IMG/VR virus record: IMGVR_UViG_3300010273_000004
Span: 1-37,917 of that record
Reading direction: 5' to 3' (one strand)
DNA: 37,917 nucleotides
Source of the DNA: a virus
Lineage: Duplodnaviria > Caudoviricetes
Part shown: positions 11,318-14,585 of the stretch, one piece after another
How the letters are laid out: each line of letters starts with the position of its first letter
Position numbering within the stretch: the first letter of the stretch is position 1
Notes under the pieces: generated by a model
Seen by the model: only the letters and a program-made list of their open reading frames with translations
Told to the model about the DNA's origin: nothing
The model's database searches: none
Position numbers and translations under genes: made by a program

Positions 11318-11504
11318 CGGCCAGGCTGTCGCCAGAGGGGACACGGTTATGATCAAAGCGAACGGCCTCAAAGGCAAAGTCATGATGATCGGACAGCACG
11401 GCCTAGTATCCTTACATATTCCTGATCAACCGATCGTGGCGAGTCGGCCGTATGACCCATCAGAACTGACTTTGGTTAGAGAGGAGGGAAGCAATAACCA
11501 GTAA
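11295..11504 (+). CDS. Small KOW/SH3-like protein
   Basis: RGDTVMIK..GLKGKV motif; SD GGGAGG. Confidence 0.55.
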   Translation: MRQSILVDGQAVARGDTVMIKANGLKGKVMMIGQHGLVSLHIPDQPIVASRPYDPSELTLVREEGSNNQ

Positions 11505-11519
11505 GAAGGGAGTGATTCG

Positions 11520-11702
11520 GTGCAGATAAGGGAAATCAGCGTAGGCGTGCGGCAGGTGAAGAACCTGGGGAACTACCAGTCATTGACGGCAGAAGCAACG
11601 GCTACGGTAGTTTTGGAAGATGGTGACGATCCCGACATGGTATATGCACACGCCTGGACAAAGGTCAAGAGGGAGGTGGAAAGTCAACTGAAACAGGCAT
11701 AA
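11520..11702 (+). CDS. Hypothetical phage protein
   Basis: 60 aa, NLGNYQS motif, SD AAGGGAG. Confidence 0.7.
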   Translation: MQIREISVGVRQVKNLGNYQSLTAEATATVVLEDGDDPDMVYAHAWTKVKREVESQLKQA

Positions 11703-11762
11703 AAATGACCGCGAATACGACGATCCGCAGTCACTGAGAAATCAACCACTTATATTATATCA
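11700..11762 (-). ncRNA. Short antisense sRNA cassette (extended -10 promoter, about 48-nt transcript, terminator)
   Basis: Minus strand TG-A-TATAAT (11762-11754); 11-bp stem UGACUGCGGAU/AUUCGCGGUCA that pairs fully only on the minus strand (G-U), then U5. Confidence 0.55.
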
Positions 11763-11788
11763 CAAATTGAAGCGCAGGAGGTGCAGGT

Positions 11789-12157
11789 ATGGAAAACATT
11801 TTTAGCAAAGACCAGCTGGTGATCGCCAACGATCCATTCGACGGCGAATATATCGGCCAGTATGTATCCCAGAATATGCTGACGGGTAAATCATCCTACG
11901 TCAAGATCCTTGCCTGCACGAGATACCCATCGCAGCGCACCATAGCATACGCCCACATCATGTACGAAAGAAAGCCGTATGAATACGGAAGCATACATCC
12001 GTTCGATGACGTTGAGATCCGGGCGTATGACGGGCCTGTGCCCGAGTACAACGAATCAGTCAGGATCGCTCTCGACAATGCGATCGAAGAGGCGGGAACA
12101 AACGGCAACATGAAGGTATTGGCTGCGCTGCGGAATCACAAACTGCAGATAGCATAG
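11789..12157 (+). CDS. Hypothetical protein
   Basis: 122 aa, SD AGGAGGTG. Confidence 0.7.
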   Translation: MENIFSKDQLVIANDPFDGEYIGQYVSQNMLTGKSSYVKILACTRYPSQRTIAYAHIMYERKPYEYGSIHPFDDVEIRAYDGPVPEYNESVRIALDNAIEEAGTNGNMKVLAALRNHKLQIA

Positions 12158-12218
12158 ACGGCGGTTATTGCTGCCGTCTTTTGCTTACTCAAAAATCGAT
12201 GAAAGGCAAGGTGTTTGT

Positions 12219-12593
12219 ATGGATATAAAGCAGAGACTTCTTGAACTCCCCGATCAGATTGCAGAGCTCGAGCAGGCAGTATTTAAAAAGCAGACGATGC
12301 TTGAGGAGATCCTGCAGCAGGAAAGAATCTGGGAGAGCGGCAAAATGGATGAAATCTGCAATGCCGTCGACGAGAACGGCAAACCGAAGTTCAGCAACGA
12401 CGCCAAGAGGCAGGCTGAACTGACGAGGCTCAAGTCGGCAGACGAAAAATACCTGGCTCTTGAAGCGGAGCGCAAGGCGTTCTTCCAGGATATCAGGATG
12501 GTCGAGATCGACATCAGGCGCCTGAGCAATCTCCAGAGCAATCTCCAGAGCAATCTCAGATCTATCTGCAGGCTCGAGTCTGAGTCTGCCTGA
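12219..12593 (+). CDS. Coiled-coil hypothetical protein
   Basis: MDIKQRLLELP...KPKFSNDAKR; contains a 12-bp tandem repeat (SNLQ) at 12525-12557. Confidence 0.7.
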   Translation: MDIKQRLLELPDQIAELEQAVFKKQTMLEEILQQERIWESGKMDEICNAVDENGKPKFSNDAKRQAELTRLKSADEKYLALEAERKAFFQDIRMVEIDIRRLSNLQSNLQSNLRSICRLESESA

Positions 12594-12615
12594 TCAAATA
12601 ACGGGAGGATCCAGC

Positions 12616-12849
12616 ATGACAAGCAAGGAGAAAAAGGTATACGAAACTATCGGCTTATTGATAGGGGCTGACGAGGATGTCATCGAATCTGATGCCAACC
12701 TCAAGGACGACCTGGAAATGGATGATATCGACCTGGTCGAAATGGCCATGACGCTTGAGGAGGAGTTCGACATCGATATCCCGGAAGAAAAGCTCAACGA
12801 GTTCCAGACAGTCCAGGATGTAGTCGACTTCATAGAGGATCTTGCCTGA
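12616..12849 (+). CDS. Acyl carrier protein-like protein lacking the phosphopantetheine serine
   Basis: ANLKDDLEMDDIDLVEMAMTLEEEFDIDIPEE...TVQDVVDFIE aligns to AcpP; DSL motif is DDI; SD GGGAGG. Confidence 0.9.
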   Translation: MTSKEKKVYETIGLLIGADEDVIESDANLKDDLEMDDIDLVEMAMTLEEEFDIDIPEEKLNEFQTVQDVVDFIEDLA

Positions 12850-12854
12850 TCAAC

Positions 12855-13059
12855 AAGGCGGTGGCGGAATCAGACGCTAATTTGGGGTTAAGGGATGGCG
12901 GACGCAGCAAGCCTACGTTGGAAGACAAGTCGGGTAAACAGCTGGAAGGTAGGGCCGCCAATAAACTGCGTGAAAATCATAAAATCCCCATGTCCCTAGT
13001 ATTAGGTGCCGACTAACACGCAGATAGTCCCGTGCAGGTAGCCAATCCTGCCCGCCTTG
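12855..13059 (+). ncRNA. tRNA-like structured RNA with a large insert replacing the anticodon loop
   Basis: Acceptor AAGGCGG/CCGCCTT, UG linker, D arm GCG-GAATCAGA-CGC, TAAT/ATTA stem, variable arm GACTA/TAGTC, T arm GCAGG-TAGCCAAT-CCTGC. Confidence 0.7.
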
Positions 13060-13218
13060 ATCCCCCTGAAAACCGTATAAGGAAGGGCTCCGATGATGTC
13101 CATGCCGGAACTTCAGCCAAGAAACCTGCCTGACGGCCGGTAATGGCAGGATGAGGCTGCAGGGAAAGCATGAACGGAGGAGCCCGCTAGTGAAGATAAA
13201 CCCGGTTTTACGATGGAT
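13060..13218 (+). ncRNA. Rod-shaped structured RNA with purine-rich internal loops
   Basis: Nested helices AAAACCG/CGGTTTT, GGGCTC/GAGCCC, CATGC/GCATG, CAGCC/GGCTG, CCTGCC/GGCAGG. Confidence 0.6.
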
Positions 13219-13297
13219 GAGTGAGCGATGTTGCGCGCGCGTTACAAAAGACAAAGGAGGCCGCCGGCCAGCCTCCCAAGTTATTAAATATGAGGGG

Positions 13298-13480
13298 ATG
13301 GGTTTATTGGATAAAAAAGAGTCCATTCGGATAGAGGCCATTCTGAACTACAAAAACGGAGAACTGGAATCCGTTTTGTTGTCTAAAGAAAGTTTTCTCA
13401 GCCTTATTTGTTCCGGTAAAGTCACCATCATGGTCGCAGGCCAGGATCTGTCAAAAAAAGCCTGTCGGCCAGGTAAATGA
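13298..13480 (+). CDS. Hypothetical small protein
   Basis: 3' part of ORF 13151-13480; SD GAGGGG favours a start at 13298 or TTG 13307. Confidence 0.5.
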   Translation: MGLLDKKESIRIEAILNYKNGELESVLLSKESFLSLICSGKVTIMVAGQDLSKKACRPGK

Positions 13481-13496
13481 AAGGGGTGTTATGTAA

Positions 13497-14585
13497 GTGT
13501 CAAATATCGTTACTGCTGAAAATACCCAGGTAGTTCAGCTTGATAACTATAGGAGAGAAAAATACAACGTCCTGGTGCCGACAACGACAATGACTCAGAT
13601 CAGTCCTTTCCACAAGCTCCGCGTCGAGGAAGTCAAAATCGATCCCGATCCCGACCGTGGAGAAGTGTACAAAGTCGGCAGTAAGTATACCGGCAAGGAC
13701 AGCAATGGCGAGCCTATATACGAGGATGTCCTTGCTCTTTCCAAGACTGCACTCATGAAGATCGCTTCCGCTGCAGGCATCGTCTGGAACTGGAACGAGA
13801 CGAAGCCTTTATCTGTTTCCAGGGATTACGTACTGTACCAGGCGGTCGGTGCATTCCGGAAAGGTTCAGGAGAATGGTTGCCTCTCAAGGCCACAAAGGA
13901 GATAGATCTTCAGACCATTGAGGAGGAAACATACGAATCCAACCTGGAGAAGGCAAAGAAGCTGGCAAGCAGCAAGTACCAGGATGATAAAAAGAAACTG
14001 AATAATATGACGCCGGAGCAGTGGGCAGCTGCCCAGACAAAGGCGCACATGATCCAGTGGCGCAAGAACAAGCTCATGAGAGCGGAGACCGGTGCGATGC
14101 TGCGTGTGATCAGGGCCCTGCTTTCTATAAAACACCAGTACAGCCCGTCGGAGCTTAATAGACCTTTCATCGTTCCGCATGTTGACTTCTCGCCTGACTA
14201 TTCTGATCCGGAAGTCCGCAAGATGGTCATTGAGCATGGCCTGCAGGCGACGGCCGCGCTGTTCGGCAATGCATCTCCTACCAATCAGCAGCTCGCGGCC
14301 GGGCAGGTGCAGCAGATGAGCCAGCCGTTTGAGGCAGACAACTATGATTTCGACGAGGAACCGATCGACGGCGATTTCATGGAGCCTGCCGCCGATGAAC
14401 CTGAGGCTGTGCCCGAACCGGAGCCGGTGCAGGTCCAGGAGCCGGAGAAAGTCTCCCAGGATGAAATGACATGCGCAGATTGCGGCAAGAAATTGACAAA
14501 GGCAGAAGTCGATTACTGCCTTGCGTACTATGACGGTTTCTACTGCATAGCAGATCAGAAAAAGCACAGGAGGGTTGCACAATGA
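13497..14585 (+). CDS. Putative recombination / single-strand annealing protein with acidic tail and C-terminal Zn finger
   Basis: Coupled to sbcDC; RAETGAMLRVIRALL helix reminiscent of annealase C-terminal helices; acidic linker; CADC...C..C. Confidence 0.5.
   Translation: MSNIVTAENTQVVQLDNYRREKYNVLVPTTTMTQISPFHKLRVEEVKIDPDPDRGEVYKVGSKYTGKDSNGEPIYEDVLALSKTALMKIASAAGIVWNWNETKPLSVSRDYVLYQAVGAFRKGSGEWLPLKATKEIDLQTIEEETYESNLEKAKKLASSKYQDDKKKLNNMTPEQWAAAQTKAHMIQWRKNKLMRAETGAMLRVIRALLSIKHQYSPSELNRPFIVPHVDFSPDYSDPEVRKMVIEHGLQATAALFGNASPTNQQLAAGQVQQMSQPFEADNYDFDEEPIDGDFMEPAADEPEAVPEPEPVQVQEPEKVSQDEMTCADCGKKLTKAEVDYCLAYYDGFYCIADQKKHRRVAQ

Follow-up and report, generated by a model that had tools for sequence, protein, structure and literature searches.

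What does a phage gain from carrying three look-alikes of host molecules side by side, and are they one system or separate parts that share a site? The question is raised by a stretch of 37,917 bases (the window), which is an entire virus record. In it, a gene for an acyl carrier protein (ACP) look-alike that lacks the carrier serine, an RNA framed like tRNA-Leu and a rod-shaped RNA follow one another in a rightward early operon. A preliminary description had presented them as a candidate three-part ‘mimicry cassette’. Our analysis does not bear out a three-part system acting as a unit, but it does show that the slot with its exchangeable inserts and the new family of pseudoknots are real and open to testing. 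With a rough probability of 0.55 we favour an accessory hotspot whose decoys act independently and are probably cut from one transcript, the frame acting as chassis and recombination cassette.

Three host look-alikes abut in one phage clade

The elements are the following (nt, nucleotides):
12616..12849, plus strand: serine-less ACP look-alike of 77 amino acids (aa), with a ribosome-binding site at 12603-12608
12855..12877, plus strand: 5' half of the tRNA-like frame, with the acceptor 5' strand (12855-12861) and a D arm (12864-12877) without D-loop GG
12878..13033, plus strand: insert (cargo), an undescribed double-pseudoknot RNA in place of the anticodon and variable arms
13034..13059, plus strand: 3' half of the frame, with a 5-bp T stem and 8-nt non-canonical loop (13034-13051), the acceptor 3' strand (13052-13058) and G13059
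13060..13218, plus strand: rod-shaped RNA with an asymmetric central bubble

The coordinates first given for the stop of the ACP-like gene (12849), the tRNA-like 5' end (12855) and the start of the rod (13060) all hold, as do the gaps of 5 and 0 nt between them. The unit is indeed compact and placed in the early operon ahead of recombination genes, with ACP, frame and rod preceding a block formed by the gene at 13497, sbcD and sbcC. There is a one-base uncertainty: C12854 is able to pair with G13059, in which case the discriminator would be A13060; the C, G and A are kept in 4/4 loci. The same order recurs in three further phage contigs of one clade (L079, L191 and L192), which is beyond chance, and across the four contigs the gaps measure 4-10 nt between ACP and frame and 0 nt between frame and rod. 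What stands of the proposed cassette is that three real host look-alikes abut and that their order is kept in a phage with a 63%-identical neighbour gene. That they constitute one co-functional system is not supported, as serine-less ACPs and tRNA frames are widespread singly, the insert is swapped, and at locus L212 a copy of the insert lies outside a frame of this kind.

The insert is exchanged among relatives and the parts occur apart

Linkage was assessed from an independent anchor, the 13497 gene, for which 61 loci were fetched (17 viral, 29 genome and 15 metagenome). The cassette is present in four of them: L190 (99%, the same phage), L191, L192 and L087 (identical to L079, 63% at the anchor). 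Among the 57 cassette-free loci, 14 have less than 1.5 kb upstream, so that absence is not shown there. In six cassette-free relatives, a short gene abutting the anchor matches the gene at 12219 weakly (hhalign E 4e-4, probability 35%), which suggests that the cassette was inserted between the 12219 and 13497 genes; a hidden Markov model of the 12219 gene missed these proposed homologues.

Four unrelated inserts occupy one slot, in frames of 205, 160, 167 and 110 nt. Two of these inserts are found in L191 and L192, next to a rod with the sequence of that in the window. Identity between the window and these two contigs ends at 12866 and resumes at 13044, which places the breakpoints inside the frame, and a further upstream variant is joined at 13042 in one RNA contig. 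L079 holds the fourth insert, together with a diverged rod and a distant ACP. With little but the insert differing between near-identical phages, nature provides a matched set of four alleles in one slot, from which one may ask what tRNA-shaped RNAs like T4 species 1/2 do for phages. The otherwise unrelated inserts at L191:4430-4538 and L192:256-371 have one short hairpin in common, with its closing pair changed.

With a codon pattern for ACPs that have Asp or Glu at the serine site, 21 viral loci were found; they comprise 16 distinct motifs, and their gene contexts are unrelated. One of them, L136 (identical to L079), has a frame motif within 2 kb or a rod; the other 20 are without both RNAs. 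Conversely, an ACP lies near 1/126 frame-pattern loci (L079), where 49 of the 79 loci with a strict frame (see below) span at least 2 kb. With 1/21 and 1/126, independent occurrence, which the preliminary description had named as the outcome that would speak against a joint cassette, is largely what we find across phages, but not within the one clade.

The slot of the window holds a new pseudoknot family

The insert of the window defines a new family of double-pseudoknot RNAs, which shows covariation and escapes annotation tools. Its predicted pairings are:
12896-12901/12955-12960, plus strand: helix S1
12966-12972/13017-13023, plus strand: helix P3
12882-12887 with 12994-12999 (by script) or 12986-12990 (by eye), plus strand: long-range pair a
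12928-12933/13009-13014, plus strand: long-range pair c, just 5' of a GUAAA motif

There are six copies (window, L253, L219, L314, L240 and L212). Among the frames, L253 was found by nhmmer (E 1e-4), and L219, L314 and L240 by weaker matches or by eye. The homologues have side-by-side domains S1 and P3 tied by pairs a and c, the helix sequences differ in each, and pair c always lies directly 5' of a GUAAA or UUAAA motif. A pseudoknot descriptor fits 4 of the 34 inserts of at least 100 nt, L219 not being among them, whereas none of the 300 shuffles made of each insert fits; this count is biased because the descriptor was designed on sequences that it matched. A covariance model without pseudoknots, run on 100 sources, retrieved one new copy (L212:879-1022; 40 bits, E ~6e-6). 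In this out-of-sample copy a, S1, c and P3 comprise 6 bp each, and c has a compensatory change. Rather than in a Leu-type frame, it lies behind a gene that by eye is tRNA-like and ends in CCA, and it is closed by a stem of its own. The insert is thus an autonomous RNA module.

An Rfam search of the insert and the L212 copy gave no family and no ribozyme or group I intron match. The insert model had no match in 150 Bacillota genomes, in a search without a positive control that is therefore uninformative. Reading the insert as a mini-tmRNA was rejected: the local pseudoknot 12902-12906/12966-12970 is not conserved, and the homologues keep the 12966/13018 helix. The cluster at L212:820-1560 (minus strand) combines the free double-pseudoknot RNA and the CCA-ending tRNA-like gene with a Leu-type frame, whose insert measures 106 nt, and with another tRNA-like RNA that is enlarged in the middle.

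A tRNA-Leu-like frame surrounds the insert

The frame (12855-13059) has a 7-bp acceptor stem, a Leu-type D arm and a 5-bp T stem, with no encoded CCA. Standing in place of the anticodon and variable arms are 156 nt, without a 7-nt-loop anticodon stem-loop. ARAGORN and Rfam scans called nothing at the ACP-frame-rod stretch, and there was no tmRNA call. Nested folding of frame plus insert gives a z of +0.26, because the conserved helices are pseudoknots. The acceptor, D and T arms are re-paired with other sequences in L191/L192 and in L079; the D arm of L191/L192 differs from that of the window yet still pairs, and the T loop is canonical there.

The pattern of the frame 5' end occurs at at least 121 loci, with ~590 stretches estimated. 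A strict test, requiring at least 6/7 acceptor pairs, was passed by 79 of 110 distinct matches, so that acceptor pairing in these strict frames is partly by construction. Their inserts measure 47-173 nt, and 92 frame inserts fall into 80 blastn clusters.

The frame resembles tRNA-Leu (RF00005) in its acceptor stem, T arm and possible A discriminator, and its D-arm motif also occurs in genuine tRNA-Leu genes that the frame pattern retrieved. It differs in lacking the D-loop GG, the T-loop TTC, the CCA, and the anticodon and variable arms, and in escaping both ARAGORN and Rfam. Among known cases, the T4 species 1 and 2 RNAs (rnaD and rnaC; AF158101) come closest; they are stable, non-coding and abut a tRNA gene, rnaD lying 1 nt after tRNA-Arg. 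Species 1 has a canonical T arm and an acceptor-like stem around a large insert, an architecture that by eye is like that of the frame. By eye, however, neither T4 RNA has a Leu-type D arm or sequence likeness, and both lie in a tRNA cluster, with no ACP neighbour in the T4 stretch examined, whereas the frame lies between protein genes. In the engineered tRNA scaffold for recombinant RNA, a cargo is likewise placed at the anticodon position of a tRNA body; the window frame, in contrast, is natural and exchanged among phages.

At L008:1501-1730, a frame has a big D-loop insertion plus one at the anticodon position. Several of the inserts of L244, L220, L255, L256, L260, L296 and L315 have internal T-loop-like hairpins, and that of L244 seemingly holds most of a second tRNA (by eye).

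The ACP look-alike lacks the carrier serine

The 77-aa open reading frame (ORF) matches Pfam PF00550 (E 2.8e-12). Its predicted model (pLDDT 90.9) adopts the four-helix ACP fold, with a TM score of ~0.87 against solved ACPs. Asp37 (12724-12726) is aligned to the phosphopantetheine serine of the D-S-L motif, serines are present at residues 3 and 25 only, and 26 Asp/Glu residues stand against 5 Lys/Arg. Judged from its sequence, the protein cannot be used as a carrier by known chemistry. The fold is that of the housekeeping AcpP (PF00550, TIGR00517) and of annotated phage ACPs (phrog_5934; ViI-like phages), and the acidic helix II pattern D-x-V-E-x-x-M-x-L-E-E-E-F is likewise shared with them. 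What differs is the Asp at the serine site and a score of 63.4 bits, below the TIGR00517 cut-off of 70.45. Helix II of ACP is acidic and is the docking site of partner proteins (PMC3340395), and apo-ACP is able to act as a pure binding cofactor, apo- and holo-AcpP being equal in MukB stimulation (PMC8602292). It is therefore plausible that an ACP which cannot be loaded still works by binding.

The residue at the serine site is Glu in P0005, L191 and L192, and Asp in L079, where a Ser lies one residue earlier. The ACP of L191/L192 is 76% identical to that of the window. The window and L079 proteins are 36% identical and are not sisters in a 37-row tree (support 95/91), which for so short a protein is to be read with care. 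Related phage contigs of 150-160 kb with ViI-like resemblance (L132, L134, L138, L142, L148 and L151) have Glu at the ACP serine site. Serine-less phage ACPs are widespread but annotated as carriers, and their partner could reveal a new route of host takeover or counter-defence.

The rod RNA and its possible roles

The predicted helices of the rod are:
13069-13075/13203-13209: counterpart in L079
13085-13091/13179-13185: counterpart in L079
13101-13105/13168-13172: rod helix
13114-13118/13155-13159: counterpart in L079
13125-13130/13145-13150: rod helix

Against shuffles, the folding advantage is modest in the window (z -2.2, 4/200) and absent in the L079 homologue (z -0.02). The rod is present in L190-L192 and, diverged, in L079; with two distinct sequences only, and an L079 rod without folding signal, the structure has little covariation support. 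The rod is clade-restricted: pattern scans gave 6 and 14 stretches, of which L079 alone is real, none was found in 401 Bacillota genomes, and blastn against plasmids and phages gave short chance or ACP matches only. A coding role was rejected, the reading frames differing between the window and L079 (by eye).

RNA evidence consists of assembled contigs from runs that were chosen for holding part of the query; the runs containing the stretch are from anaerobic digesters for the most part. In two RNA runs of one study the rod is the only long exact piece (13081-13252 over 3 kb, 13081-13237 over 20 kb), and in one other run a piece at 12883-13023 equals the insert. The contigs X1 and X4 extend from the T arm across the rod into the downstream genes. 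Runs X9, X12 and X23 have pieces across the phage, may hold DNA and have no bearing on the rod, and gaps in runs X11, X16 and X20 are no evidence of absence. The rod-only and insert-only contigs are a weak hint of stable RNAs.

The rod may be a 6S-like decoy: it would sequester the sigma-A RNA polymerase of the host and act as a template for short product RNAs, and the frame would have no role beyond releasing it. We regard this as possible, though we would not expect it to hold. Size (~160 nt) and the rod shape and asymmetric central bubble predicted in the window, which are weaker in L079, are like those of 6S RNA (RF00013; B. subtilis 6S-1), and the rod-only contigs of the two runs fit a separate RNA. 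The closing stem is much shorter than in 6S RNA and the rod is made within an operon, but the short stem is not fatal to this explanation because B. subtilis 6S-1 remains functional when truncated to just a bubble flanked by short arms (PMC8876501). Homology to 6S RNA, on the other hand, was negative in four tests and was rejected, the rod being without sequence or model similarity. There was no match to RF00013, a model of 36 Bacillota 6S RNAs run with filters off gave none at E<=10, profile alignment reached z 0.33 and 0.48 against shuffles, and bubble and arm lengths are unequal between the two variants. In addition, a block of sigma-A polymerase would presumably hinder a phage that needs this polymerase too. 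Should the rod bind RNA polymerase, the phage would be making a 6S analogue of its own. A Pelosinus genome has divergent 6S copies (L159 and L160, G005:C18:33765-36031) 2 kb apart, plus a third, canonical copy.

Alternatively, frame and rod may act in cis: the operon would be uncoupled by the tRNA-type cut, after which the downstream message would begin with the rod, and this would shield the recombination-gene mRNA from 5' exonuclease or aid read-through. The rod 5' end pairs back, the rod stands directly before the 13497-sbcD-sbcC block, no plus-strand terminator was found behind it, and X1 and X4 connect T arm, rod and downstream genes. Yet the role in cis is doubtful, as 57/61 loci have the same downstream block without the cassette, the rod-only contigs (one study) suggest a free RNA, and the large, fold-conserved, exchanged insert is left unexplained.

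A model of independent decoys on one processed transcript

We hypothesize that the three look-alikes were acquired separately into an accessory slot of the early operon. RNase P would cut before the frame and an RNase Z-type enzyme after it, no CCA being encoded. Bacillota RNase P and RNase Z cleave CCA-less tRNA-like precursors, and release of the parts by host tRNA-type processing is plausible. The cuts would free the ACP message, a nuclease-resistant RNA of frame and insert, and the rod, while the conserved frame ends may provide homology arms for insert swapping by recombination. The ACP may occupy proteins that dock on ACP helix II, and insert and rod may each bind a host or defence factor of their own. 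The likely benefit would be host takeover or counter-defence, with a separate target for each part.

Several points weigh against this model. The RNA data that could bear on the proposed processing are assembled contigs, which give neither ends nor strand. The rod is seen only together with ACP and frame, and the little covariation in its structure counts here too, as do the bias that descriptor design brings to the pseudoknot shuffle count, with L219 missed, and the 14/57 cassette-free loci that are too short upstream to show absence. Furthermore, all three parts stay together in a phage whose ACP lineage and insert are different, and a functional link would explain this too.

We speculate, with little confidence, that tRNA frames more generally are a natural, recombination-refillable display for RNA effectors of anti-defence or host takeover, and that the locus is a ‘decoy polycistron’ directed against translation, transcription and lipid-linked hubs by a double pseudoknot, a 6S-like decoy and a cofactor-less ACP. 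Searches of the literature, mostly without subscription papers, found no description of serine-less phage ACPs, of 6S-like RNAs in phages or of Leu-type frames whose inserts vary. The supplementary files searched of PMC10690425 (10,006 candidate viral RNAs) gave no match, and its remaining files may contain such RNAs.

Less likely explanations

The insert could be a catalytic RNA, self-cleaving or self-splicing, rather than a decoy. The double pseudoknot is compact, copies lie in phage tRNA clusters, one right after a tRNA-like gene, and the order a, S1, P3, 3' hairpin resembles, by our comparison, a group I core. Catalysis is nevertheless unlikely: the Rfam search gave no ribozyme match, a conserved guanosine-binding helix or splice-site pairs were not seen in the insert, and excision would leave no anticodon arm.

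More unlikely still is the original proposal that the three parts are one system jointly neutralising tRNA-attacking toxins or stringent-response signalling, which is supported by none of the literature found. In its favour are the order and abutment kept in L079 despite the different ACP lineage, the retained acceptor/T-arm top half, and the binding of ACP by SpoT via helix II (PMC3340395). However, the parts occur independently, the insert is freely swapped, the anticodon arm is absent and CCA is encoded in 2/79 strict frames. TacT-type toxins had been said to use ACP, but the term ‘acyl carrier protein’ is absent from the accessible portions of PMC4942678, PMC5449658, PMC9177977 and PMC9241777, which thus offer no such link. 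The claim that Rel/SpoT enzymes sense ACP is correct for SpoT, which binds it; according to PMC3340395, however, SpoT is confined to beta- and gamma-proteobacteria and RelA shows no ACP binding. The named relatives of the phage are mostly Bacillota, outside the SpoT range. B. subtilis Rel is not known to bind ACP.

It is highly improbable that the frame is a tmRNA-like top half titrating SmpB, as proposed for mycobacteriophage DS6A, whose tmRNA variant consists of the tRNA-like domain (TLD) only: both are phage RNAs with a tRNA top half and no anticodon arm, such TLD-only RNA being known (PMC4131195), but the window frame is Leu-type instead of Ala-type, has a paired D stem, variable inserts and G3:C70 (G3:U70 in 1/79 strict frames), and gave no tmRNA call, no RF00023 match and no conserved tag frame among inserts. 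Just as improbable is that the ACP is a private cofactor of the phage SbcC-like ATPase, as AcpP is for MukB; the two share an operon and apo- and holo-AcpP stimulate MukB equally (PMC8602292), but 57/61 loci with the gene block show no ACP nearby and serine-less ACPs occur in many unrelated gene contexts. A complex prediction of ACP with the phage SbcC scored 0.00, which speaks neither for nor against.

Genomic setting

The gene content of the window, with a serine recombinase, a repressor/Cro pair, SbcD- and SbcC-like genes, terminase, portal and head genes, is that of a temperate tailed phage, and most of the relatives of the 13497 gene that have a name belong to Bacillota. The flanking features are:
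12219..12593, plus strand: upstream gene of 124 aa, probable coiled coil, no family match
13255..13277, minus strand: hairpin and T tract, terminator-like for the opposite strand; L079 has a similar hairpin
13307..13480, plus strand: 57-aa ORF, start picked by eye; a different small gene is at the same place in L079
13497..18399, plus strand: conserved gene without known function (phrog_13782), SbcD-like nuclease and SbcC-like ATPase

The small gene that replaces the 57-aa ORF after the rod in L079 (L079:4734-4973) is one that we take, by its look, to be AbrB-like. No sigma-70-type promoter was found on the plus strand in 11500-13700. The early operon includes a KapB-like gene (11789-12157; PF08810, E 4e-7), which is also present in L079 and L094. 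Within the upstream gene, a 12-base short tandem repeat lies at 12532-12558, of which L190 seemingly has one unit fewer. Eleven identical bases end both the upstream gene (12587-12597) and the ACP gene (12843-12853). About 0.3 such repeats are expected by chance per 1.6 kb, and the repeat is not intact in L191; it is possibly a trace of the route by which the ACP gene was inserted.
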